Below are positions 37,705-51,306 of a DNA stretch of 64,000 bases, in pieces. The notes under the pieces are model-generated. The model ran no database searches and was not told the DNA's origin. It saw only the letters and a program-made list of their open reading frames with translations. How positions within the stretch are numbered: the stretch's first letter is position 1; every line of letters starts with the position of its first letter. The position numbers and the translations under genes are program-made. Source of the stretch: Cyanobacteriota bacterium (GTDB lineage: Bacteria; Cyanobacteriota; Cyanobacteriia; PCC-6307; Cyanobiaceae); contig JBJOMY010000002.1 in the NCBI GenBank assembly GCA_046052125.1, forward strand, positions 32,001 to 96,000. Direction: 5' to 3'.

Positions 37705-38598
37705 GTGATCTCGGTGGATGGCCTGGCCGCCCTCGATCACCTCATCTGGTTGCGCACCGGTCAGCGCGCGGCAGAGGCGCTCGCTTGCACGCAGCCCACC
37801 GTGAGCCGCAACAGCCGCAAGTGCCTGGATGTGTTCGAACTGGAGCTGGAACGCAGCCGCGGCGAATGGCGACTTCTGGGTGACACCCAGCTGATCAAGC
37901 TTGAGCGCCTTGTGCATCAAAAGCAGCGCTGGGCCCGCAATCTCACACTGCGGCTTGAAGCGCAGCACTGGTCGGCGCCTGGGCTGGATGGACTTGAGCT
38001 GGCGAACTGGCAGCGCGGCAACTTCAACCAACTCGAGTACGAACAGCCGCTCGCGTTGCTCGAAGACGGAGTGATCGATGCCTGGATCTGCTCCGCTCCC
38101 GATGCTCCAGTGCGGCCAGGCCTCACGGGCCTACGCCTCACCACCATGCCGATGCACCTGATGGTGCCCCGCGGCCATCCCCTGGCCGAACGACGCAGCC
38201 CCATCGCCTGGGAGGAGTTGCTGCCTTATCCGGTGCTACCGCTGCCAAGCGGCAGCTTCCCGATCTTTGAAGCGGTGCTGCAGCGCTGCAGCTTGCTGCC
38301 GTGCCCTGAGCGCACTCAAGCCATCAAGGCCTCCGGCTGGTACGGGCAGAGACCCACCGAAGCGATGCTGATCGCCTACTCCTCACCGCTCACGCTGCAG
38401 CTCTATGGCGACGCCTGGGTGCGACTGCCCCAGAAGCTGCCGGTGGAGGTGGGCGATGTGTTGATGGTGCGCGAGGAGTTCAGCGATCACCCACGCACGC
38501 AACAACTGCTGCGCAAGCTTCTCGATCATCTGGCCGAGCTGGCTGCGCCCCACAGCGATGTGATGGTGCATCATGCACCGGCGGCTTACGTCGTGTAA
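37705..38598 (+). CDS. LysR-type transcriptional regulator (divergent)
   Basis: N-terminal HTH (AAEALACTQPTVSR) and substrate-binding motif LMVPRGHPLA. Confidence 0.8.
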   Translation: MISVDGLAALDHLIWLRTGQRAAEALACTQPTVSRNSRKCLDVFELELERSRGEWRLLGDTQLIKLERLVHQKQRWARNLTLRLEAQHWSAPGLDGLELANWQRGNFNQLEYEQPLALLEDGVIDAWICSAPDAPVRPGLTGLRLTTMPMHLMVPRGHPLAERRSPIAWEELLPYPVLPLPSGSFPIFEAVLQRCSLLPCPERTQAIKASGWYGQRPTEAMLIAYSSPLTLQLYGDAWVRLPQKLPVEVGDVLMVREEFSDHPRTQQLLRKLLDHLAELAAPHSDVMVHHAPAAYVV

Positions 38599-38605
38599 TC
38601 GGCGT
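38585..38605. repeat. att-like direct repeat, left copy
   Basis: CTTACGTCGTGTAATCGGCGT, identical to 50076-50096. Confidence 0.9.
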
Positions 38606-38754
38606 CTTGCTCGCCCATCCCTCTGCGCCTGCCGCTGCAGAGCTTTGATGGCTTTACGGATCTCAGCGGCATAGTACCAACCGCTTCTGGACCACTGCTT
38701 GAGGATCCACCCACCTCACTGGAGGCAATTGGTCCTCTGATGTCAGGTCAGTGC

Positions 38755-39054
38755 TCAGTAGTTGTCCCCGTACTTGAGTCCAGAGGCGGCATCCATCAGT
38801 TCCACCGTGGTCTGATGCCCCTGCGCCACAGTCACCTCGTGCTGGATGCCGATGTCCCGCAGTGCCTTGATGTCGAACTCAGGCGCGGTGATCCAACTGA
38901 AACCCTTACCAAAGGTGTTGTCGGGATTCACCACATACCAATGGCAGGCAGTGTCGGGGACGGCGACAGAGCATTTGGTCCAGTCGTTATCCCACTGAGG
39001 CACCTGAACGAAGGAGAGGGCGGCGAATAGGAAACCAAACAGACTGGAGAACAT
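38755..39054 (-). CDS. Small secreted hypothetical protein
   Basis: Hydrophobic N-terminus, QVPQWDNDWTKC...CHWYV. Confidence 0.7.
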   Translation of the reverse strand: MFSSLFGFLFAALSFVQVPQWDNDWTKCSVAVPDTACHWYVVNPDNTFGKGFSWITAPEFDIKALRDIGIQHEVTVAQGHQTTVELMDAASGLKYGDNY

Positions 39055-39255
39055 GCCGCTTTTACATTTCTCAATATCCTAGGCGGTATCTGGGTTTTCC
39101 TTCGCCAATGGGTTGAACGGGCGTGTATCGGGCATCCCGATTTGCTTCCTCAGGATGGTTCTTTTGAGGGCGTCCCTGGAAGCATTGCCTGAGCGGTAAC
39201 TGCAGTGTCTGGCACTGGATTCTGGCTTGAGGACACTCGATGTACTGTGCGCTTG

Positions 39256-39497
39256 ATGGCAAAGCAAGTCCGTCTGACCCTCGCCAAGGCAAATCTGCGC
39301 CGTGCTGAGGCAGGGGAGAAATCCATCACCATGAACTCGTTGGCGACTCAGGCAGGGGTGGCGGCAACAACCATCACTCGCTTGGCAAGAACCGACGACA
39401 AGGCGGCATCAGCACTGTCACTAGACCTGGCATCCAAGATTGGACGGTGCTGGATTGTGAGATTGAAGATCTTCTGGAAGTAGTGGTAGCGGATTAG
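39256..39497 (+). pseudogene. Cro/C1-type HTH regulator with an apparent frameshift near 39440
   Basis: SLATQAGVAATTITRLAR...LSLDLASKI, then the family-like tail (TVLDCEIEDLLEVVVAD*) continues in another frame. Confidence 0.65.
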
Positions 39498-40414
39498 TTC
39501 TCCAACTCCAGGAAGAAATCCTCATCCATTCTCCGGATCACGAATGTCTGCTTTGTTGAAACGCCGATGCCGTGTTTGAGCATCAGTTCAGACATTCTCT
39601 TACCATCAACAAGAATGATTCTGCGGTCAGTCAGTGTCTTGACGTATTCCTGGGCGGGTTGAGCAAATGTCGAGGTGGTCATAATCACACCTTTGGAAGC
39701 ACCAACCCCTGCAAGCGCACCCACAAAACCTTGAATAACGGGTCTCCCAACTGACCCCTCCCATCGCTTTGCCTGGATATAAATGCGATCAAGACCAAGG
39801 TGATCTTGGTTTACGACGCCATCGACGCCACCATCTGCACCACGGGCAACGCCTTGAACGTCTTCCATTGACCCGCCATATCCCATACCAACAAGCAGGC
39901 GCAACACCAACTGCTCAAATCCCTCAGGGGGCAACTGCTTGACTCGATCCAAGACCTCATCTTGAAGTTCACGTTGGATTCGCCTCACGCCCTTCTCAAT
40001 CTGTTCTTCTGGTGTCAGATCATCATCAATATCGCCTGATTCAATCAGATCTTGCTTGCCATTTCTGGTAGTCGAGATGAAGTCATTGAACTGCTCGTAA
40101 GACCGAAGGAACTCAGCGTCGATTGCGGCAGGCGGATTTGAGAGTAGATCTTTGCCGCTTTGACTGATGACATAAGTTGCTCGACGTGGGCGTTCGATCA
40201 ATCCTGCCTTAAACAGATAGGTTCGTGCCCACCCCATTCGATTATCAAAGGCAGTTTGTGTTCCACTGGGCAGGCGTTGACTCAACGCTTCAGCGCTCAG
40301 ACCAAGGTGATCTGCGACGGCATCCCGCATCTGATTGGTTGTGAGTTCGCTGCCACCACCCATCACCTTGAGGAGAGGAAGCATCAGAGTGTGATATTGA
40401 GGAATGCTGTTCAT
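39494..40414 (-). CDS. mrr: Mrr-type (type IV) restriction endonuclease
   Basis: Mrr N-domain (IPQYHTLMLPLL, FDNRMGWARTYLFKAGLI) and catalytic DGGVDG...YIQAKRW; ATGA overlap with the hsdR stop. Confidence 0.93.
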   Translation of the reverse strand: MNSIPQYHTLMLPLLKVMGGGSELTTNQMRDAVADHLGLSAEALSQRLPSGTQTAFDNRMGWARTYLFKAGLIERPRRATYVISQSGKDLLSNPPAAIDAEFLRSYEQFNDFISTTRNGKQDLIESGDIDDDLTPEEQIEKGVRRIQRELQDEVLDRVKQLPPEGFEQLVLRLLVGMGYGGSMEDVQGVARGADGGVDGVVNQDHLGLDRIYIQAKRWEGSVGRPVIQGFVGALAGVGASKGVIMTTSTFAQPAQEYVKTLTDRRIILVDGKRMSELMLKHGIGVSTKQTFVIRRMDEDFFLELEN

Positions 40415-43400
40415 TCGCCGACGCCTCCCAACTGACCGCCCATATTGCTTGTAAGTGCATGAGCGACAACCGCCTGAATCTTCTTGCCAAGATCCTCTCT
40501 CGACCACTCCTCAGAAATCATCTCGGTCTGCTGGAGCACCAACTCAATCGCTGCTGCTTCCTGATCAGGCGGATACTTGTAGCGTTTGAGCAGTGCCTTG
40601 ATCATCGTTCGCAGTCGTGCCCGAACGTTTTCCTTGTATTGCCAGTCGATGCTGAGGTTGCCTCTGAGTTTTTCTGCCAGTTCCCTTGCCATCTTCATCA
40701 GCACCTCATCACCCATCAGATCGTGTGCTGACTGGTTGTTCGCCAGGGCGTCGTAGAAGGCGACTTCGGCAACCGACAATCCCATTGCTTCGACTTTCTC
40801 CGCCTCATCACGGAACTGCTTTGCCATGGCAATCAGTTCCTCGATCACTTGTGCCGCCTCGATGGAGCGGTTGGCGTATTTGTTGAGAGACGCCTGGAGC
40901 AGTTCGCTGAACCGCTTCTGCTTGACCACGTTGGTCTTGAAGCGTGTCTGAACTTCCTCTGCCAGCAACCTCTGGAGCAGTTCAACCGCCAAGTTCTTCT
41001 GAGGGATCTTGCTGACTTCTGCCAGGAACTGATCCGACAGGATGCTGATGTCTGGTTTTTCAAGACCTGCCACCTTGAAGACATCAGTGATTCCATCTGC
41101 CACCAATGACTCAGAGAGCAGTTGGCGCAACTGAAAATCAACATTTTTAGGAGCAGATCCGTCGCCCCCTGCGTCATCGCCTTTGACTAGTGGTGCTCGG
41201 ATCGCCTGAAGGAAGGTCACCTCATCATTCAGTGCCATCGCTTCATCAGTCGTGCCGCACAAAGCAAATGCCTTAGTCATCGCCAGCACGGTGTCGCAAT
41301 ATCGCTTCTTCCCATCGGGCATCGCCAGGATGTGATCCAGGCAGTTGGGCAGCAGTGCCATTGCTGTCTTGGGATCCCTGAATCCACTCCAGTCGATGGG
41401 ATGCAGGAGGTCATGGGCAACCCGGAGTTTCTCCTTGAGGATCCTCAGCGCCTCACTGTTATCGATGGTGGGAGCACCCTTGCCCTTGGCAGCAGTGTAG
41501 GTCGCCAGTGCTTCTTTGAGTTGGGGGGCGATGCCGATGTAATCGACCACCAGACCGCCTGGTTTGTCTTTGAACACCCTGTTCACTCGGGCAATCGCCT
41601 GCGCCAGGTTTGCCCCCTTCATCGGTTTATCCACATACATCGTCGCCATACAGGGAGCGTCAAACCCCGTCAACCACATATCCCGCACCAGCACGATCTT
41701 GAGAGGATCAGCGGGATCCTTGAACCGTTTCTCCAGATCCTTCTTCTGCTGCTTGCTGGTGTGGTGAGGTTGGAGGTGGGATTCGTCTGATGCCGATGCC
41801 GTCATCACCACCTTGATGGCACCCTTCAAATGGTCGTCGTCGTGCCAGTTAGGGCGTAGGGCAACGATGGCGTCATAGAGGCGAGCACAGATATCCCTGC
41901 TCATCGCCACCACCATCGCTTTGCCTGGTTGGGTGCGTGAGCGTTGCTCGTAATGGGCAACCAGATCCGCTGCCACTTGCTTCAGGCGTGGTTCAGCACC
42001 CACGAGTGCTTCCAGTGCTGCCCACCTGCTCTTTGCCCGCTCAGCAGCAGGGATGTCGTCTTCATCAGCGAACAGGTCATCGACCTGTTCATCCACCTGC
42101 GGCAGCAGCGGTTCTTTGAGCGCCAGTTTTGCCAGGCGTGACTCGTAGTAGATCGGCACCGTGGCACCGTCTTCCACTGCCTGCTGGATGTCGTAGACGG
42201 AGACGTAGTGCCCGAAGACCGCCTGGGTGTCACGGTCGTCTTGGGAGATGGGCGTTCCCGTGAAGGCAAGGAAGGTCGCCTGGGGTAGAGCATCCCGCAA
42301 CGCCTTTGCTAACCCGTATTTGATCTCCCCTGTCTTGGTGTCGAAGCGACCCTTGAACCCGTATTGGGTGCGGTGTGCCTCGTCGCAGATCACCACGATG
42401 TTGTGGCGTTCGGTCAGGGCAGGGAACTTGTCTTCATCAGGTTCGGTAGCGAACTTCTGAATGGTGGTGAAGATGATGCCGCCACTGGGTCGGTTGGCGA
42501 GCAGATCCCTGAGTTCCTGGCGACTCTCTGCCTGCTTGGGGGATTCGCCCAGCAGGTCACCCGCCCCAGCAAAGACCCCGAACAGTTGCCCATCCAGGTC
42601 TTGACGGTCGGTGACCATCACCAGGGTGGGGTTCTCCAGGCGTGGATCGGTAAGCAACTTGCCCGCCAGACACGCCATCTCGATGCTCTTGCCAGCGCCC
42701 TGGGTGTGCCAGACCACCCCACCCTTCTTGTCACCATCAGGTCTGCTTGCTTCCACCACCCGCTCCACTGCTGCCCTGACGGCGTGGAACTGGTGGTAAG
42801 CAGCGATCTTCTTGATGATCTGCCCGTCTTCCTCAAACAGGCAGAAGGAGCGCACGAACTCCAGCAGTCGCCCCTGATCGAAGATGCCCCGCACCAGGGT
42901 CTCCAGATCACGGTGAGCACCCAGCGGATCGAGGTGGTTCTCGCCGTCGATGGTGCGCCAACGTTGGAACCGCTCCCGATCAGCACTCAGCGACCCCAAC
43001 CGTGCCTGGATACCATCGCTGATCACCAGCAGCACATTGGGCGTGAACAGGTCGGGGATGTCTTGCTTATAGGTCTGGAGTTGGTTGAACGCTGCCCAGA
43101 TGTCTGCCTTCTCATCGGCAGGGTTCTTCAGTTCGATCACCGCCAGCGGCAGACCGTTCACGTAGATCACGACATCAGGGCGGCGGTTGTGTTTGGTGCC
43201 CTGGATCGCCAACTGGTTCACCACCAACCAATCGTTGGAAGCAGGGTCATCGAATCCGATCACCTTGAGACGGATGCCCACCTGCTGGTTCCCATCCATA
43301 TAGGTGATGGGTAAACCCTGGGTCATCCAACGGTGGAAGTTGCGGTTGGATGCCAGCAGACCAGGCACGTTGGGGTTCGCCAGTTGGAGCACCGCTGATT

Positions 43401-43602
43401 CGATGGTGCTTGCTGGAACTTCAGGGTTGAGGCGTTGGAGTGCTGAGCGCAGACGCCCCGTGAGGATGACTTGCCTGAAGTCAGTGCGTTCTGGTGAGGC
43501 GCCGTCGCTGTCGAGTTGGGGCGCGAAGACGTGGGTGTATCCCAGTTCCTGGAACCACTCAAGGCACTGCTGCTCCAGATGGTCTTCTGTGATCAAGGCC
43601 AT
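40411..43602 (-). CDS. hsdR: Type I restriction endonuclease subunit R
   Basis: RRPDVV...IELKNP nuclease, WHTQGAGKS, DEAH, FTGTP, MWLTGFDAP, QAIARVNR; start MALITED at 43602. Confidence 0.96.
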   Translation of the reverse strand: MALITEDHLEQQCLEWFQELGYTHVFAPQLDSDGASPERTDFRQVILTGRLRSALQRLNPEVPASTIESAVLQLANPNVPGLLASNRNFHRWMTQGLPITYMDGNQQVGIRLKVIGFDDPASNDWLVVNQLAIQGTKHNRRPDVVIYVNGLPLAVIELKNPADEKADIWAAFNQLQTYKQDIPDLFTPNVLLVISDGIQARLGSLSADRERFQRWRTIDGENHLDPLGAHRDLETLVRGIFDQGRLLEFVRSFCLFEEDGQIIKKIAAYHQFHAVRAAVERVVEASRPDGDKKGGVVWHTQGAGKSIEMACLAGKLLTDPRLENPTLVMVTDRQDLDGQLFGVFAGAGDLLGESPKQAESRQELRDLLANRPSGGIIFTTIQKFATEPDEDKFPALTERHNIVVICDEAHRTQYGFKGRFDTKTGEIKYGLAKALRDALPQATFLAFTGTPISQDDRDTQAVFGHYVSVYDIQQAVEDGATVPIYYESRLAKLALKEPLLPQVDEQVDDLFADEDDIPAAERAKSRWAALEALVGAEPRLKQVAADLVAHYEQRSRTQPGKAMVVAMSRDICARLYDAIVALRPNWHDDDHLKGAIKVVMTASASDESHLQPHHTSKQQKKDLEKRFKDPADPLKIVLVRDMWLTGFDAPCMATMYVDKPMKGANLAQAIARVNRVFKDKPGGLVVDYIGIAPQLKEALATYTAAKGKGAPTIDNSEALRILKEKLRVAHDLLHPIDWSGFRDPKTAMALLPNCLDHILAMPDGKKRYCDTVLAMTKAFALCGTTDEAMALNDEVTFLQAIRAPLVKGDDAGGDGSAPKNVDFQLRQLLSESLVADGITDVFKVAGLEKPDISILSDQFLAEVSKIPQKNLAVELLQRLLAEEVQTRFKTNVVKQKRFSELLQASLNKYANRSIEAAQVIEELIAMAKQFRDEAEKVEAMGLSVAEVAFYDALANNQSAHDLMGDEVLMKMARELAEKLRGNLSIDWQYKENVRARLRTMIKALLKRYKYPPDQEAAAIELVLQQTEMISEEWSREDLGKKIQAVVAHALTSNMGGQLGGVGE

Positions 43603-43788
43603 GGGGTGAAGCCAGAGATTTTGCCAGTGGTCGATGGCTTGGCCCTGCCTCTTGCCACCTGCCACGCGGAGAGGCCAGACGAGCCTGGGATGCCTGGCTC
43701 AGGGAAAGCCTTAAATACGAGACCGACTGGGGCCCAGGCGGTTTGGGGGATTGGGCGGCGGCGGCGGTGGGTTGCCATTAAAAAGGCC

Positions 43789-45198
43789 TCATGCCCAGAA
43801 AGGGAGGTAGCGGGCGAACTTCCGTGAGGCGCCGACGCTGCCGTCCGGCTTGATCAGATTGGCCTCAATGGTGGCTGAAATGACCTGGGACGTCACGGCG
43901 GCCTTCTCCTCTCCAAGCCGAAATCGCTCTCTAAGCGTCTGATTAGACATCCGCTCGCCCATCACCCACCGGAGAGCGCAGTGTTGATAACAGGCTCGAA
44001 CCCGGTTGTTCCGGTCCATTTGGTCAAATGGAAGGGGGCCGAAGATCGTGACAATCGTGCGGCGGAAACCTGCGTGAAAATCTGGAGCAGGGAGTTGATA
44101 CACCTCAGCGGCATCAACCACCCGATCAATACCGCTGCTCTTCTCCTCGCAGATGCCGAAGCGACGCATCAGATCAGCAAGATGTTCATTGCGAGATTGA
44201 TAGCCATCGATGAAGCGCTCTACAGGCACAAGGGGTTCGCCCGGATTGGAGATCTCAACGCGATTGGCGAAGATGTCGATCATGACAGAAGCCCCAGCGA
44301 CAACGAAGTCCTGATGAATTAGGGCATTGGCCAAAAGCTCACGAATCACAACATCTGGAACGAGCTTAACCTCTTTGCGCAAGGCGCGCTCAATGATTTC
44401 ATTCTGCGGCAGTTGTGCATAGATGTAGTTCACAAATTCCTGAAAGCCAACGGCGTAACCGCGATCAAAAACGTGATCCAGCTTTGTTTGCAACTTGGAT
44501 GGCCCTGAGTAGACGACAACGCGCGCAGCTTTACGTGATAGATCAGGGAAATCACTCAGTCGGCGAGCCAGTAAAAGCGCACCAAGACGTCGAATGGTGT
44601 AGCTGCTGCCTTCATAATCGACAAGCTTTTCTGCCGTGAGCCTGTCAAGAACGCCTACGCGATCTGTGGGATAGGGCAACCGCAGAAGCTCAAAAAAGGT
44701 TTGTGTATCGAGCAGCTCTACAACCTCCTGAGCATCCAGACCTCGTCGGGAAGGCTCTTCGAGCCAATCAGGTTGACCTTCAGAAAAAATGCGCCTCAGC
44801 TGGTCTTCGCTCATCGGCACCAACGCTTCGCCTGCGCGCATCAAATATTTGCCTTCCAGGTTGTAAGCCGTTCCGCGGGGACGTGATGGAATGTGAAAAA
44901 CAAGAACACGTCCATCTGGATGAACAACGGCCTCGATATCGACTCTGAATCCAACGGCCTTGAACAGTTTTTCTGCTGCTGCAACCGTGTCTGGGAAGGC
45001 TTGAGTGCTGACAACCTGGCGTGGAGGTTCATCTGCGATTCCAAGAAGAAGCACACCGCCACCCTCATTGGCCAGGGCCACGCAGTATTCATTCAGTTTG
45101 CGCGTGTCAAACTGATGCTTCGCTTCCTTGAATTCCAACCGTTGGTGCTCAGAGGCCGCTTGCCGCCAGAGATCAATCTGCTGTGGGGTCGTGCTCAT
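43789..45198 (-). CDS. Schlafen/AlbA_2-domain protein with a HATPase-like middle region and C-terminal wHTH-like region
   Basis: SEHQRLEFKEA...VALANEGGGVLLLGIAD; RELLANALIHQD, EISNPG, SRNEHLADLMRRFGICEEKSSG. Confidence 0.85.
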   Translation of the reverse strand: MSTTPQQIDLWRQAASEHQRLEFKEAKHQFDTRKLNEYCVALANEGGGVLLLGIADEPPRQVVSTQAFPDTVAAAEKLFKAVGFRVDIEAVVHPDGRVLVFHIPSRPRGTAYNLEGKYLMRAGEALVPMSEDQLRRIFSEGQPDWLEEPSRRGLDAQEVVELLDTQTFFELLRLPYPTDRVGVLDRLTAEKLVDYEGSSYTIRRLGALLLARRLSDFPDLSRKAARVVVYSGPSKLQTKLDHVFDRGYAVGFQEFVNYIYAQLPQNEIIERALRKEVKLVPDVVIRELLANALIHQDFVVAGASVMIDIFANRVEISNPGEPLVPVERFIDGYQSRNEHLADLMRRFGICEEKSSGIDRVVDAAEVYQLPAPDFHAGFRRTIVTIFGPLPFDQMDRNNRVRACYQHCALRWVMGERMSNQTLRERFRLGEEKAAVTSQVISATIEANLIKPDGSVGASRKFARYLPFWA

Positions 45199-46499
45199 GA
45201 CAGCATCCCCTCAAGCATCTTCTCGGCATCAGGGATTCGGATTTGACCTGAGATGAGTTTGGAAAGGAGGGTATCCCTGGTTGTTGCGAGATCTTTGGAT
45301 TGCTTCCGTAAACCAAAGACTCGATCCAGAAGAGGGGCAAATGCTGAATCCATCGCAGCAAGAAGAGATGGTGTGGGGATCAGCGCCTTAGCCTCACTTA
45401 GATGATGCCTTTGGATGTGCCCCATCGTTGTCGCTTTCCCCTGGGCGATTTCCTGAAACTCAGGCAGATGGTGCTTGACCCACTGAAGGAAGAACCACTT
45501 GTCGTAGGTCTTGGATGTGACCTTGAAGAGGTGCTGGTTCAGAGCACCATCACCTCCACACCACATATCAACAGCAAGAGAACCAGACCAGGAGAACAAC
45601 ACATCACCATCCCTAACTACATAGTCGGATGGAACTGCTGTCGAGCACCTGTCTGCCCCAATGGAATCGCCCTTCTTTAGTTGAGCGATCTTGATCACTG
45701 GAAGCGTTGGGTTGCCGTCTTCAGGCGGGAACTTCTGTAGGGCAAGACCATTGAGGAAATGAGCGACCTCATCCAATGACTTCACTTTCCACCCACTAGG
45801 AATCTCGCCGTGTTCCGAATCCTCAAATGAATCTTGGAACAGGTCGCTGATTTCTGCTGGCAATCCAGTAGGGCGACCTTCTGCCTTCGCTCTGACTGGA
45901 TCGAAATCCACAAACCACGACTTGAAGAGCGCCTTTGCCATCGCCTCCAAGGTTTCGTTGGTCTTGCGGTTCAGTTCGATCTTGTCATCAAGGGTGCCGA
46001 GGATATGAGCGATTGCTTTCTGTTCATTGAAGGGTGGCAAGTCAATCTCAACCTGCTTCAGTTCCCTGACTGAAAGGTTGCCCTGAACGGAACCATTATC
46101 CAGTTCTCTGGCAATGGTCTTCCCAGTTGATCCGCTCAGGATGTAATAAAGAAAATCACGGGATACGTTTTGCTTTGGTCGAATGATGACAAGAGACGAT
46201 GCTATCGCCCCTTTCTGAATGCCCTTCGCAAGACCGATCTTTCCAAGAGATCCACGAAGGCAAAACAAGATATCGCCCTTCTCAATCTTTCCATTACCAA
46301 GCCGATCGTATGCCCCTTGCGAAATAAAGGTTGCCCCCGACAGGTCTATGCGCCTACCGTCAAGGTCAGAGGCGCTGACAAACGGTATTCCGCTGGCGAC
46401 ATAATCAGAAGAGGATGGGTAGTTCTTCCCCCTGTCGCCATTGATGAAATCAGCAGCGTTGTCGAGAGTAGAAGTCGACCAACTAAAATCAGAACTCAT
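45195..46499 (-). CDS. hsdS: Type I restriction-modification specificity subunit
   Basis: Two TRDs with conserved spacers ([46 protein letters not shown]). Confidence 0.95.
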
Positions 46500-48375
46500 A
46501 TCCCAACCTCCTCAGATTCTCGGCAATCTGCTGATCCAACTTCGCCCCCTCTTCCTGCTGCTGCTTGAGCAGAGCAGTGAGGCGCTTCATCTTCTGATCA
46601 AAGGGTTCGTCGTCGTCATCCTGATCTGCCGCTCCCACATAGCGACCAGGTGTGAGCACAAAACCATTCTTCTCAATCTCATCTAACTTGGCGCTGTAGC
46701 AGAATCCAGCAACATCCTCATAGACATCAGATACCTCGCCATCACCACGCCAGGCGTGAACAGCACCAGCAATCTTCTCAATATCCTCATCCGTTAGCAC
46801 CCGTTCAACCCTGGTCTTCATCGTGCCCATCTGACGGGCATCAATAAAAAGCGTCTCTCCACGACGATCACGACCACGCAGGGTCTTGTCATTCGTCAAG
46901 AACCACAAGCAAACAGGAATCTGAGTGTTGAGGAACAGTTGACCAGGCAGTGCCACCATCACCTCAACCACATCACCACGCACCATCGCTTCACGGATCT
47001 GCCCCTCACCGCTCTGGTTGGAACTCATCGATCCATTTGCCAGCACTACACCTGCTTCACCACCAGGGCGTAGTTTCCAGAGCATATGTTGCAACCACGC
47101 ATAGTTCGCATTGCCTACAGGTGGTCGCCCGTAGACCCAGCGTGGATCACTTTCGTATTTCTCCCCGCCCCAATCCGAAATGTTGAACGGTGGATTAGCA
47201 AGGATGTAGTCGAACTTCTGATCAGGGAACTGATCTCTGGCAAAGGTGTCAGCAGGTTCCTGACCCAGATCCGCAGCAAACCCACGGATCGCCAGGTTCA
47301 TCGCTGCCAACCTCCAGGTGGTTGGGTTGCTCTCCTGCCCATAGATCGAAGCGTCATCACGCTTGCCCCCGTGCGCCTGGATGAACTTTTCGCTTTGAAC
47401 GAACATTCCACCTGAACCGCAGCAGGGGTCATAGATCCGACCCTTGTGCGGTGCCAGCACAGCAACCAGCGTTTTGACGACGTGAGCAGGCGTATAGAAC
47501 TGACCTCCCTTCTTGCCTTCTGCGCTGGCGAACTGACCGAGGAAATATTCGTAGACCTCCCCCAGCACATCACCCGAACGCTGGTCGTCAGCAAATCCAA
47601 TGGTGGAAATCAGATCTACCAGTTCACCCAGACGCCCTGGTTCCAGTTGAGCGGCACCAAACCGCTTATCCAACTTGCCCCGCAGGGTCGGGTTCTCGTT
47701 CTCGATGGCGACCAGTGCCCGATCAATCAGTTGACCGATATCAGGTTGCTTTGCCCGTGCCCGTAGCGACTCCCAGCGAGCATCAGCAGGCACCCAAAAC
47801 ACGTTCTCTTGGGTGTAGTAGTCACGATCCTCCAGTGCTGCTTCGTGATCGGCAGGGTCATCACCGATGTAGAAGTCAGAGTCAGGCGAACTGACCATTG
47901 CCAGCACCTTCGCCCGATGCTCGGCAAACGTGTCTGAGATGTATTTCAGGAAGATCAGACCCAGAACCAGATGCTTGTATTCCGCCGCATCCATCTGGGC
48001 ACGGAGTTTGTCGGCGCTCGCCCAGAGAACTGCCTTGAAATCCTTGGCGGGTGCTTCCTTCTTCGCTCGACCTCGACCGTTACCTGCTGCTGGTGCTGAG
48101 GGTGCCTCGTAGCGACTGCCGCCAGGGATCCCATCTGCCAACCCAATGGCACCCCCACGCCCCCGACCCTTGCGGATTATTCCCAGGGCAAGCGCCTTTT
48201 CCTTGACTGCCTCGTACTCCTCTTCGCTGATCTGGCGCTCTGCTGCTCGACTCAGCGCCTCCCGTGCCGACTGGTTCCCGATGGTGCTGCCATCAGGGGG
48301 GAGCACCTCCAGGAGCAGGTCACTCAGTTCTGCTTCCCCTGCGTCGGGTGTGGTGAAAGTCGCTGAGTCGGTCAC
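46489..48375 (-). CDS. hsdM: Type I N6-adenine methyltransferase with an ~110-aa N-terminal extension
   Basis: [24 protein letters not shown] (motif I), ANPPF (motif IV), LTPGRYVG. Confidence 0.95.
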
Positions 48376-48493
48376 TGGGACTGGATGCTTCCGCCCATTT
48401 TCGCCGCTGCGCCTTGGTTTTGCCCGTTATGCGCTATTCGCATAGACCAACGGCGCCTGTGGTGGGAACTCTGAGAGCAGTCGCACTGATCCG

Positions 48494-48712
48494 ATGACCA
48501 CACTCACCACTGGTGCCCTGGCAACCGAGACCCTGATCGCCTCGCTCCTTGCCCTGGAAGACCTGACCAACCGCCTGACGGTGCTAACCCTCAATGCCTC
48601 TGGATGCCCTGAGCAATCCCCCAGGGTGCGGGCGCTGCTGGCAGACCTGGCGGATGCCCTGAAGCGATGTGAGGAGGATCTGGGGACCTATGCCGCAGCA
48701 AACGACACCTGA
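48494..48712 (+). CDS. Small helical hypothetical protein
   Basis: 72-aa Leu/Ala-rich ORF divergent from hsdM. Confidence 0.6.
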   Translation: MTTLTTGALATETLIASLLALEDLTNRLTVLTLNASGCPEQSPRVRALLADLADALKRCEEDLGTYAAANDT

Positions 48713-48716
48713 CGGT

Positions 48717-48971
48717 TCAACGCCTCTCGGTGATGGGTTCCCATTCCGCCTTAATCCCGATGTCGGGTGCTCCTGACTCTTTGTTGGTCTTCTCCATCCA
48801 CTGTGACCTCACGATCCTGTGCCCCTTAAGCACCTGCCGCATTCCTGCTGGTGCTTTGGCGGCGGCGCAGGAGGTGCCACCGTCCCTACAGGCGCTGGAT
48901 GCTGAGCGGTCCCTCTTGCTCCCACACCCCGCCAGCAGCAGCACCCCAAGGAACAGGGCAACCCGCTTCAT
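48717..48971 (-). CDS. Putative lipoprotein
   Basis: MKRVALFLGVLLLAGC lipobox; ATG overlaps the upstream stop (ATGA). Confidence 0.6.
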   Translation of the reverse strand: MKRVALFLGVLLLAGCGSKRDRSASSACRDGGTSCAAAKAPAGMRQVLKGHRIVRSQWMEKTNKESGAPDIGIKAEWEPITERR

Positions 48972-49150
48972 CGCTTGTGAGCAGTCTTTGCCCAGATCCG
49001 CTCCAGGGTCTTGCGGAACTCGCCCTCGCTCAAGGGTCGTGCCAGATCTCGCTTCCTGACGGTGCTCCAGATCCACCAGACCTGAAGACCGCCAAAGGCA
49101 AGGGCGAACAGACCCAGTTGGAGGTACCCAGAGTTCAGATGCTCCATCAC
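48968..49150 (-). CDS. Small membrane protein with LERIWAK motif
   Basis: One TM helix then FRKTLERIWAK. Confidence 0.7.
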   Translation of the reverse strand: MMEHLNSGYLQLGLFALAFGGLQVWWIWSTVRKRDLARPLSEGEFRKTLERIWAKTAHKR

Positions 49151-49323
49151 GCCGTCTGCTGGTCCTTTGCCCAGATCCGTTCCAAGGACTGCCTGACCTG
49201 ATCGGTTCTGGAGGTAGCGCCCAGCACTCGCTTGCGGAACAGGGTGGTCAGGCGCCAGAACTTGACTCCAGCAGCAAGGGCAAAGACCGCCCAGGGCACC
49301 AGCATCCAGAGCGGGTTGCTCAT
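49147..49323 (-). CDS. Small membrane protein with LERIWAK motif
   Basis: MSNPLWMLVPWAVFALAAG...VRQSLERIWAK. Confidence 0.7.
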   Translation of the reverse strand: MSNPLWMLVPWAVFALAAGVKFWRLTTLFRKRVLGATSRTDQVRQSLERIWAKDQQTA

Positions 49324-50075: not shown

Positions 50076-50096
50076 CTTACGTCGTGTAATCGGCGT
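50076..50096. repeat. att-like direct repeat, right copy (3' end of argJ)
   Basis: CTTACGTCGTGTAATCGGCGT encodes ...ADYTT* of argJ on the - strand. Confidence 0.9.
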
Positions 50097-51306
50097 TGAT
50101 GCGCACGTATTGATCCGACAGGTCACATCCCCAGGCGCGACCCTGCCCTGAGCCTTCACCCACCTGCAGGCGGATCACCACGGTGTCGTCACGGAGGTAG
50201 GCGCCGGCAGCGCGATCGCGCATGTAGGCAGAGGCGGCAGAGCGATCAAAGGCCAGCGGCTGACCGGCTGCCATCAGCTGGTGATCGCCGAGCCACAGGG
50301 CCACGGCGTCGGGATCGAAGGGCACACCGGCCCGGCCGGCAGCCGCCACGATGCGCCCCCAGTTGGGATCGCGGCCGTGCACGGCACATTTCACCAGCGA
50401 CGAACCGCAGATGGTGCGGGCGATGGCGCGGGCACCGGCATCGTCGGCTGCCCCCTCCACCAGCACCTCGATCAAGCAGGTGGCACCTTCGCCGTCGCGG
50501 GCGATCGCCTTGGCCAGATGTTGCGACACCGCCGTCAGGCCAACCTCCAACGCATCGAAGTGCTCGGGGCTCAGGGGCTCACCGGCTGCAAACGCCAGGT
50601 ACGTGTCGTTGGTGCTGGTGTCGCCGTCCACCGTGATCGCATTGAAGGAGCGATCCACCGCCCGCTTCACCATCGCCTGCCACGCATCCGCCGGCACGCC
50701 GGCATCGCAGCTGAGGTAGCCGAGCATCGTGGCCATGTTGGGGTGAATCATTCCCGACCCCTTGGCCATCCCGCCGATGCGCACGCGGCGGCCGCCCAGC
50801 TCCGCCTCCAGGGCGATCTGTTTGTCGATCAGATCGGTGGTGAGGATCGCGGTAGCCGCTGCCGCACCGCCCTCGGGGCTGAGGGCCTCGGCCAGTGGGT
50901 CGAGCCCCGCAAGGAGGGTGTCCATGGGGATCGGCACGCCGATCACGCCGGTGGAGCAAATCAACACTTCATCCGGGGCCAAACCCAGGTGATCCGCCAT
51001 GGCCTGGGTGGCGCGCAGGCTGTCGATCAGGCCGCGATCACCCGTGCAGGCATTGGCCTGCCCTGAGTTGCTCAGCACCGCACGGGCGCGGCCGCCGCTG
51101 GCCTGCAGGCGCTCAGCACAGAGGTCGACGCATGCGGCCCGCACCAGTGAGGTGGTGAAGGTGCCAGCGCAGACAGAACCTTCCGGGGCCAACAGCAGTG
51201 AAAGATCAGGCTTGCCGGAGGCCTTGAGGCCAGCGGTGATGCCAGCCGCCAGGAAGCCTTCAGGAGCCGTGACGCCTCCGGGAATCGACTGCCAAGAGTG
51301 GGGCAC
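50077..51306 (-). CDS. argJ: Glutamate N-acetyltransferase / ornithine acetyltransferase
   Basis: SNSGQANACTG, AKGSGMIHPNMATML, DGDTSTND, DGEGAT, NADYTT. Confidence 0.97.
   Translation of the reverse strand: MPHSWQSIPGGVTAPEGFLAAGITAGLKASGKPDLSLLLAPEGSVCAGTFTTSLVRAACVDLCAERLQASGGRARAVLSNSGQANACTGDRGLIDSLRATQAMADHLGLAPDEVLICSTGVIGVPIPMDTLLAGLDPLAEALSPEGGAAAATAILTTDLIDKQIALEAELGGRRVRIGGMAKGSGMIHPNMATMLGYLSCDAGVPADAWQAMVKRAVDRSFNAITVDGDTSTNDTYLAFAAGEPLSPEHFDALEVGLTAVSQHLAKAIARDGEGATCLIEVLVEGAADDAGARAIARTICGSSLVKCAVHGRDPNWGRIVAAAGRAGVPFDPDAVALWLGDHQLMAAGQPLAFDRSAASAYMRDRAAGAYLRDDTVVIRLQVGEGSGQGRAWGCDLSDQYVRINADYTT

Follow-up and report, generated by a model that had tools for sequence, protein, structure and literature searches.

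The stretch of DNA analysed here (the window) comprises 64,000 nucleotides (nt) of contig JBJOMY010000002.1 (positions 32,001 to 96,000; assembly GCA_046052125.1) from a freshwater picocyanobacterium of the family Cyanobiaceae, and carries a type I restriction-modification operon with a Schlafen family gene between hsdS and hsdR. Open reading frames (ORFs) together with Pfam, PADLOC and NCBIfam scans revealed five co-directional genes on the minus strand in the order hsdM-hsdS-X-hsdR-mrr, where X (P0001) denotes the Schlafen gene. The methyltransferase subunit gene hsdM (longest ORF 46489-48375) encoded the domains HsdM_N (amino acids (aa) 114-256) and N6_Mtase (aa 267-587, E 3.2e-104) and matched PADLOC MTase_I with 2e-189. 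It was followed by the specificity subunit gene hsdS (45195-46499; Methylase_S in two stretches, PADLOC Specificity_I 1.7e-113), by X (43789-45198; 469 aa, Pfam domains PF04326 and PF13749) and by the restriction and translocase subunit gene hsdR (longest ORF 40411-43665; HSDR_N, SWI2_SNF2, T1R_D3-like and T1RH-like_C, TIGR00348 with 1.8e-180, PADLOC REase_I with 1156 bits). The last gene, mrr (39494-40414; 306 aa from the ATG at 40414), encoded a type IV modification-dependent restriction endonuclease (Mrr_N 4.5e-29, Mrr_cat 2.1e-33, PADLOC mREase_IV 1.6e-78). Two ATGA stop/start overlaps were read in the sequence, one leading from hsdS into X (45195-45198) and one from hsdR into mrr (40411-40414). 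A preliminary description of this DNA had reported the gene order, both overlaps and an E-x4-E-F-K motif in X, and all of these were confirmed by ORFs, profiles and the sequence itself.

The type I system was complete, with near-full profile coverage for N6_Mtase (positions 2-310 of 311), HSDR_N (3-198 of 198) and T1RH-like_C (2-328 of 329). When HsdS was compared with nine relatives, the central and C-terminal conserved regions aligned and the target-recognition parts diverged. Because the domain matches of the operon genes far exceeded the curated cut-offs and the gene order recurred among related loci, we consider the arrangement to be above chance.

Two Pfam domains were found in X, namely SLFN_AlbA_2 (PF04326; aa 17-129, 45.5 bits with a cut-off of 25.3) and HATPase_c_4 (PF13749; aa 302-384, 71 bits with a cut-off of 26, 8.6e-20). 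The Schlafen (AlbA_2) nuclease domain spans aa 1-141 (44776-45198, minus strand, as for all domains of X) and includes D56 and the motif E17-x4-E22-x-K24 at nt 45127-45150, which lies within SEHQRLEFKE (residues 16-25; E17-HQRL-E22-F-K24). It is followed by a middle domain of helices and strands (aa 142-222, 44533-44775), delimited by its DSSP elements and matched only within the whole-chain alignment to the structure 3lmm, which might be winged-helix-like judging by its secondary structure. The GHKL (Bergerat-fold) ATPase domain (aa 223-388, 44035-44532) was supported by HATPase_c_4 and by fold matches. The C-terminal winged helix (aa 393-469, 43792-44022) was recognized by its matches in VIA-align and showed no Pfam helix-turn-helix (HTH) match, although its fold matched winged helices.

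These motifs were strongly conserved in an alignment of 63 homologues reaching down to 32% identity. E17 was present in 63/63 sequences, position 22 was held by 58 glutamates and five aspartates, K24 was found in 62/63 and D56 in 52/63. In the ATPase domain, E287, N291, H295, R336, N337 and G356 were each present in all 63 sequences and N318-P-G320 was near-invariant; we assign E287, N291, N318-P-G320 and G356 to the N, G1 and G2 boxes. More than 6,600 homologues shared sequence words with X, of which the best 120 were all 468-469 aa long, were 77-95% identical and carried both PF04326 and PF13749. They were named "ATP-binding protein", "predicted HTH transcriptional regulator" or "RecG". In a library clustered at 50% identity, 7,017 cluster representatives matched X at E <= 0.001.

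Profile and structure comparisons placed the N-terminal domain among the Schlafens. The profile of X matched PDB chains of SLFN13 (1.8e-11) and SLFN11 (5e-8) and also reached SLFN14, SLFN5 and SLFN12, and in HMMER alignments E17, E22 and K24 of X fell on the E-x4-E-x-K of SLFN13 and SLFN11. An AlphaFold2 model of X (pLDDT 91.4, pTM 0.71) was compared with known structures in VIA-align, where residues 1-116 matched the C-lobe of SLFN11 (chain residues 192-328) with Z 8.8 and a root-mean-square deviation (rmsd) of 3.1 Å over 112 residues. For X 1-116/141, Z was 9.5 with the SAMD9 tRNase, 8.6 with SLFN13 and 10.3 with the bacterial AlbA_2 domain 2kyy, and it ranged from 7.9 to 9.5 over the SAMD9 tRNase and the C-lobes of SLFN11, 13, 14, 5 and 12. 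A Z of about 8 is middling on its own, and here it agreed with significant sequence-profile matches. The agreement of model and profile bears out the Schlafen-type identity given in the preliminary description. Residues 223-388 matched histidine-kinase CA domains and SpoIIAB (Z 7.3-7.8), and residues 393-469 matched Z-alpha, MarR-type and ESCRT-II winged helices (Z 7.3-8.5, rmsd 1.9-2.8). The whole chain matched the structural-genomics structure 3lmm with Z 20.6 (Foldseek E 1e-21). X thus consists of a prokaryotic Schlafen nuclease domain, a GHKL ATPase and winged helices. A PADLOC match to Aga_SIR2-PNTD (2.1e-5) was weak and partial and was disregarded.

In SLFN11, E209, E214 and K216, with which the motif of X aligns through sequence alignments and matching ranges rather than side-chain superposition, are essential, and D252A is tolerated (PMC9482658). 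Perez Taboada et al. (10.1101/2025.07.24.666596; Nat Microbiol 2026, PMC13056530) collected 5,930 prokaryotic Schlafens (pSlfns), among which "HisKinase" (34.0%) and "HisKinase-HTH" (19.2%) were the commonest fusions, the Ex4(E/D)xK motif was conserved and 69.6% lay within 10 kb of a defence gene; one member, RorSlfn5, is a phage-activated tRNase. A further study (10.64898/2026.05.29.728809) described SLFN joined to PF13749 as the "Schlatpase" supradomain, found in 60,692 of 103,533 proteins (58.6%), mostly with a short C-terminal HTH. In RzAgo, tetramerisation driven by ATP through the PF13749 domain pairs the Schlafen domains into an active tRNase, and in type I operons of Poribacteria closely related Schlatpases occur stand-alone or fused to HsdS (10.64898/2026.05.29.728809). 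CbCash is a Schlafen tRNase that is activated by cA4 and uses an E17-D22-K24 triad; cluster 7 of the same study contains Schlafen, ATPase and DNA-binding proteins tightly linked to restriction-modification genes (PMC13462974, Nat Commun 2026). Schlafen-histidine-kinase-winged-HTH genes were reported beside BREX in at least 1,017 taxa and were called "backup suicidal effectors" (PMC12839542).

X belongs to the HisKinase-HTH/Schlatpase class, the commonest bacterial Schlafen architecture, with which it shares the order SLFN_AlbA_2, PF13749 GHKL and HTH, the Ex4(E/D)xK motif and the location in a defence island. PF04326, PF13749 with intact ATP boxes, the C-terminal HTH fold and the fold of the Schlafen C-lobe were all present in X. 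Within this class the orthologue group of X is unusually conserved, with 62-98% identity across many phyla and a length of 468-469 aa throughout. The experimentally proven Schlafens differ from X by carrying Ig-like, DUF262, Argonaute or Csx15 sensors. Cluster 7 and the poribacterial Schlatpases show the same link to restriction-modification, for which the two papers give an association only (PMC13462974, 10.64898/2026.05.29.728809). The BREX-linked genes have the architecture of X in another methylation-based operon, where the host is BREX and the role only predicted (PMC12839542). The multi-domain fold of X over residues 1-388 is also seen in DIP2311 of Corynebacterium diphtheriae (3lmm) and its N-domain in the Nitrosomonas "RecG-related" structure 2kyy, both at 16-20% identity and without a function assigned by the depositors.

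To see where such genes reside, we examined the best 80 loci (62-98% identity) of 270 relatives of X in a genome collection. They came from Cyanobacteriota, Pseudomonadota, Acidobacteriota, Planctomycetota, Verrucomicrobiota, Chloroflexota, Elusimicrobiota and others, plus one archaeal metagenome-assembled genome (MAG). Neighbouring hsd genes were sought by tblastn of the window proteins, with at least 35% identity defining an hsdR of the same family. Such an hsdR lay downstream on the same strand in 27 loci, 23 of which also had hsdS upstream; upstream sequence or an hsdS match was lacking in the other four. Three more loci (L002, L040, L041) had hsdS or hsd remnants beside X. For the remaining 50, the two nearest crude ORFs per side (169 ORFs) were scanned with Pfam, and other type I genes were found near X in nine (L003, L044, L049, L050, L056, L062, L067, L080, L023), with hsdM, X and hsdS following each other in this order, not always directly, in L056 and L067. 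Eight loci (L007, L013, L014, L022, L038, L042, L046, L061) had other helicase, methylase or conflict-system genes nearby. About 33 of the 80 had housekeeping or unannotated neighbours or lay on short contigs, and no defence gene was found within two ORFs per side. Orthologues among housekeeping genes were still 65-80% identical to X (for example L005, L016, L028, L037, L051, L058).

Embedded and solitary orthologues interleaved on a tree of 70 rows. The label "type I slot" changed 15 times on this tree, at least five of the changes being forced by well-supported branches, while shuffled labels gave a mean of 21.6 changes and only 2 of 500 shuffles were as low. The genomic context of X is therefore clustered, yet it has been switched many times. 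In related operons the same slot was occupied by RhuM/Fic, Fic-wHTH (winged HTH), Abi_C, DUF6119, DUF3644, SIR2_2, AAA_14-DUF4143 or nucleotidyltransferase genes, which indicates that the junction between hsdS and hsdR is a general cargo site. Among 29 other cyanobacterial loci with an hsdR of the same family, none had X within 1.5 kb, so the slot is usually without X.

Some of the loci showed further peculiarities. Fragments of hsdR, either N-terminal stubs or duplicated C-terminal pieces on both sides, lay beside X in five of them (L054 5929-6114 and 7629-8459; L010 5472-5786; L040 2666-2941; L003 2020-2379; L041 9503-9706) and resemble traces left by recombination into type I operons or out of them. 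In L080 (6484-12557), an hsdM, a Schlafen gene, a second hsdM, a divergent Schlafen/GHKL gene with a Fic-like_C winged helix and an hsdR followed each other. Identical Schlafen proteins were encoded on short contigs of a Methanobacteriota MAG (L074) and a Ca. Fermentibacter MAG (L075), which would reflect either a very recent transfer or a binning error. The HsdS of L004 (6247-8001) contained an insert of about 130 aa in the central conserved region (alignment columns ~345-505), presumably a DUF559-type endonuclease domain by its resemblance.

The arrangement was also found on plasmids, of which 85 records matched X in tblastn. The 16-kb plasmid pAQ3 of the model cyanobacterium Picosynechococcus sp. 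PCC 7002 (L135, 1154-8632) encodes an N-6 DNA methylase, a subunit S, an "ATP-binding protein" (WP_041444060.1; 51.7% identity to X) and an R subunit of the EcoAI/FtnUII family, followed by an Abi gene. Plasmid pACNA2.1 of Acidovorax carolinensis encodes a methyltransferase, a subunit S, an "ATP-binding protein" (57% to X, with a 4-nt overlap with the S gene) and an R subunit. These annotations show that RefSeq has long contained the architecture, though under a name that says little about it. In the literature searched, which did not cover supplementary tables, no explicit description of the order hsdS-X-hsdR was found earlier than the papers cited above. The architecture is already known from the 2026 papers on the linkage to restriction-modification and BREX and from the annotated RefSeq plasmids; the preliminary description had suspected as much, and PMC13462974 (cluster 7) and 10.64898/2026.05.29.728809 agree with it.

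The block 39494-48375 represents three defence modules that reside together on one mobile block and are probably functionally separable. In the first, HsdM, HsdS and HsdR would cut DNA lacking their methylation pattern. In the second, a type IV enzyme of the Mrr type, whose gene is translationally coupled to hsdR, would cut certain methylated DNA. The third would be X in the cargo slot between hsdS and hsdR, and we think it rather likely that X is a Schlafen-type tRNase gated by ATP that acts in abortive infection on its own. X would stay inactive until a phage cue arrives, whereupon ATP bound to the GHKL domain would let it oligomerise and pair the Schlafen domains into an active nuclease. 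With E17, E22, K24 and a divalent metal this nuclease would cut tRNA and stop translation, resulting in abortive infection or growth arrest, while the winged helices would be the likely sensor or tether. X would be present in the operon because accessory defence genes land at this junction repeatedly and because translational coupling there secures co-expression. To the gene content, intact motifs, fold, distribution and mobility observed here we would thus add, by homology to RzAgo, CbCash, RorSlfn5 and SLFN11, a presumed RNase activity, a tRNA substrate, gating by ATP, autonomy and an abortive outcome. Autonomy is suggested by the many loci with no defence neighbour, by the repeated changes on the tree and by fusions of the module to other partners. 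Such fusions were seen in P0272, P0273 and P0290 (a second GHKL, PF02518/PF13589; an N6_Mtase/Eco57I/MmeI-type methyltransferase; a STAND-like AAA with BTAD). Furthermore, P0274-P0289 (~1035-1087 aa) carried the Schlafen N-domain of X (its first ~31%) at 66-74% identity together with a region of about 900 aa without Pfam domains, which looks like the nuclease module swapped onto a different sensor.

Several points weigh against an autonomous X. Loci linked to type I systems made up 39 of the 80, far beyond chance expectation. The class of loci with no defence neighbour was defined by crude ORF calls and two ORFs per side, with several short contigs among them, and the tree was a quick maximum-likelihood one and not a careful search, from which 11 loci whose matches were partial, split or interrupted had been excluded. 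Among 26 slot loci there were nine in which the upstream gene's stop and the start of X overlapped. Identities of X and of HsdR were correlated (Spearman 0.34; 12 of 2000 permutations as high) in 18 operons with both proteins complete (153 pairs), so that X appears to travel with the operon often, though not always, and the same would equally be expected of a functional partner. Finally, when seven pSlfn constructs of four architectures including HisKinase were tested alone in E. coli, only the DUF262 fusion and the Ig-like RorSlfn5 were protective (PMC13056530), which would fit the need of HisKinase-type pSlfns for a partner or a special trigger.

These points bear on the proposal that X is a guardian comparable to the anticodon nuclease PrrC. 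PrrC, in which an ABC-type NTPase is joined to an R-E-H anticodon-nuclease domain, stays sequestered on the Hsd complex until T4 Stp activates it; prrA, prrB and prrD correspond to hsdM, hsdS and hsdR. X would accordingly be latent on the Hsd complex or sense it, and would be freed as a tRNase once the type I enzyme is put out of action by an Ocr-, ArdA- or Stp-like protein or by DNA damage. Like prrC in the type IC system EcoprrI, X is a gene for a presumably translation-disabling nuclease within a type I operon, with an NTPase domain expected to regulate the tRNase domain. X lies between the subunit genes in the slot described for prrC (PMC3874165; EcoSal review PMC12707154), which is "embedded in this operon" (PMC3874165), and "PrrC slot" in the preliminary description was an apt term as to position. 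Beyond the 39 loci linked to type I systems, by which the expected enrichment of homologues at restriction-modification loci was borne out, the stop/start coupling specifically to hsdS in seven loci and on pACNA2.1 and the correlated Schlafen and HsdR similarities speak for such a guardian. So do the fusion to HsdS reported in Poribacteria (10.64898/2026.05.29.728809), the tight ties of the class to restriction-modification and BREX (PMC12839542, PMC13462974) and the fact that HisKinase-type pSlfns alone were not among the protective constructs (PMC13056530).

We nevertheless regard this guardian as a possible but unlikely rival. Orthologues 65-80% identical to X among housekeeping genes, interleaved with embedded ones, argue against an obligate linkage, as far as crude ORFs and short contigs allow. 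The partner HsdR on pAQ3 is of a different family (EcoAI/FtnUII), and L056 and L067 deviate in gene order. X was also far more conserved than HsdR, with median pairwise identities of 73% and 55% and X higher in 94% of the 153 pairs, and so diverse a set of partners could be sensed only through a highly conserved Hsd surface. No fusion of HsdS and Schlafen was present among 19 longer relatives of X, which is weak evidence. X and PrrC are of unrelated fold, and X showed no homology to PrrC, as only PF04326 and PF13749 were matched at E <= 0.01 and there was no NCBIfam match. A predicted complex of HsdS and X gave an ipSAE of 0.00 in both runs, which were made without controls and say nothing either way. 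The preliminary description had proposed a three-tier system in which the type I enzyme cuts unmodified DNA, Mrr cuts modified DNA and inhibition of restriction-modification or DNA damage triggers an abortive Schlafen RNase. The three modules were indeed present, but their coupled working and a trigger by inhibition of the restriction enzyme found no support, given about 33 of 80 orthologues without restriction-modification or defence neighbours, the coupling of mrr in 0/27 operons and the missing homology to PrrC.

A more general form of guarding would be directed against anti-restriction: the winged helices might serve as bait for DNA mimics such as Ocr- or ArdA-like proteins or might read the neighbouring methylation-based system, and the capture would then let ATP drive the tRNase to assemble. 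If true, this would explain why such genes are embedded in type I and BREX operons, two kinds of system on which the DNA mimic Ocr acts as an inhibitor (PMC7261183), and why no protection was seen when they were tested alone against a standard phage panel. We consider this idea improbable.

It is more improbable still that X is only a regulator or nucleoid-associated protein which, through DNA binding by its winged helices, governs how the operon is expressed or how the island becomes established, with a Schlafen domain that is not a nuclease. Old annotations ("predicted HTH transcriptional regulator", "AlbA_2 nucleoid-associated protein") and the one or two winged-helix domains of X point in this direction, and AlbA_2 proteins on mobile elements have been taken as nucleoid-associated (PMC10561277). 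Yet the constancy of E17, E/D22, K24, E287, N291 and G356 would be needless in a pure DNA binder, Schlafens lacking the nuclease residues are the nuclease-dead ones (PMC9482658), and the solitary copies of X have no operon to regulate. Least credible of all is that X cuts no RNA and instead nicks or binds DNA as an accessory, in support or modulation of the type I enzyme or of Mrr. Its winged helices are similar to DNA binders of the Z-alpha and MarR types, the homologous domain of SAMD9 was crystallised with DNA (7ksp) and SLFN11 and SLFN5 bind DNA, but all three biochemically studied prokaryotic Schlafens cut tRNA and the solitary orthologues speak against an obligate helper role. Because the catalytic and ATP-binding residues are conserved, both the regulator-only and the DNA-helper reading fit poorly.

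As for the second module, Mrr was intact by domain coverage (Mrr_N 1-86 of 87, Mrr_cat 2-115 of 115), in accordance with the preliminary description of an Mrr at this locus. The longest ORF reached 40507, 31 codons upstream of the ATG at 40414, and Mrr_N begins seven residues after this ATG. In none of the 27 related operons did mrr follow hsdR, and only one of the 29 cyanobacterial hsdR loci (L098) had a gene with Mrr_N and Mrr_cat, 58 nt downstream; the coupling of hsdR and mrr is therefore a local feature. In L027 (5309-8977), the closest relative with sequence beyond hsdR, the position of mrr was occupied by a small ORF without annotation and the gene of a large RTX-repeat protein (HemolysinCabind) on the opposite strand. 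The immigration control region of E. coli holds hsdRMS next to mrr and mcrBC, and as in this enterobacterial region, type I and Mrr stand side by side at a hypervariable hotspot with conserved genes as its borders here. Unlike in E. coli, mrr is co-directional with hsdR and overlaps its stop. Type I systems and mrr in one hypervariable hotspot are the textbook enterobacterial case (PMC12707154).

The operon lies on an island of about 10.3 kb (38606-48927) between a LysR-type gene (37705-38598) and a small gene followed by argJ (50077-51306). Guanine-plus-cytosine (GC) content was 0.50-0.56 over 39-48 kb and 0.65-0.70 in both flanks. We compared this hotspot at loci L123, L124, L125, L126, L128, L129, L131 and L134. 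In three genomes of the same genus (G029, G027 and G020; L124, L126 and L131) the site was empty, with 38605 at the end of the LysR-type gene joined directly to 50076 at the end of argJ. In four other loci of the genus (L123, L125, L128, L129), positions 38602-38605 were followed by sequence resembling window 48930-49320, and only the small gene was present at the site. The empty and short sites identify the 10.3 kb as an insert at a variable spot. Genome G007 had a different insert of about 9 kb at the same site, with window 38608-39484 in common at 86%, which leaves 39494-48375 as the actual restriction-modification block. A similar operon beside the same ABC1/DUF6825 flank genes was present in a related cyanobacterial MAG (L034). 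None of 36 genomes of the genus contained an orthologue of X, two of them holding paralogues of 26-27% identity, and the genome of the window contained a single AlbA_2 gene. The block was thus acquired horizontally, as the GC dip, the empty sites and the missing orthologues indicate. The window contained no tRNA gene that could serve as an integration site, and the flanking ORFs that were scanned included no integrase. A search for recombination scars in the window gave only repeats of up to 28 nt, which were chance-like, and tblastn of the ends of each gene revealed no stubs or duplicates in the island except the expected internal half-repeat of HsdS.

Some gene boundaries within the operon are uncertain. 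The longest ORF of hsdM (628 aa) has about 113 residues ahead of the HsdM_N domain, and its first ~95 aa (48094-48375) had no Pfam match and were not kept in the closest relatives L001 and L033, which makes the start of hsdM uncertain. This N-terminal extension may be non-coding or may be a locus-specific extra domain; a real winged-helix extension is conceivable, which L001 and L033 do not conserve. The start of hsdR is either GTG 43665 or a later ATG. A small ORF of about 75 codons on the plus strand (~48493-48720), divergent from hsdM, was noticed on visual inspection of the 350-nt gap that precedes the operon and could encode a controller-type protein or nothing. A scan for promoters and terminators gave fewer matches than in shuffled sequence. 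Among public sequencing runs, 20 DNA runs from freshwater, riverine and lake metagenomes contained matching sequence, with no RNA run among them.

The locus itself offers nothing categorically new. The survey sharpens a question about the HisKinase-HTH Schlafens, the commonest bacterial architecture of this family, for which no member has a demonstrated trigger or phenotype. One orthologue group of 469 aa persists nearly unchanged across many phyla, occupying the slot between hsdS and hsdR in about one third of its loci and standing alone in another third. PrrC and PARIS back up methylation-based immunity, and the preferred home of these Schlafens inside type I and BREX operons hints at a similar back-up. 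Since pAQ3 carries such an operon in the genetically tractable Picosynechococcus sp. PCC 7002, a test of guardian versus autonomous effector should be feasible.

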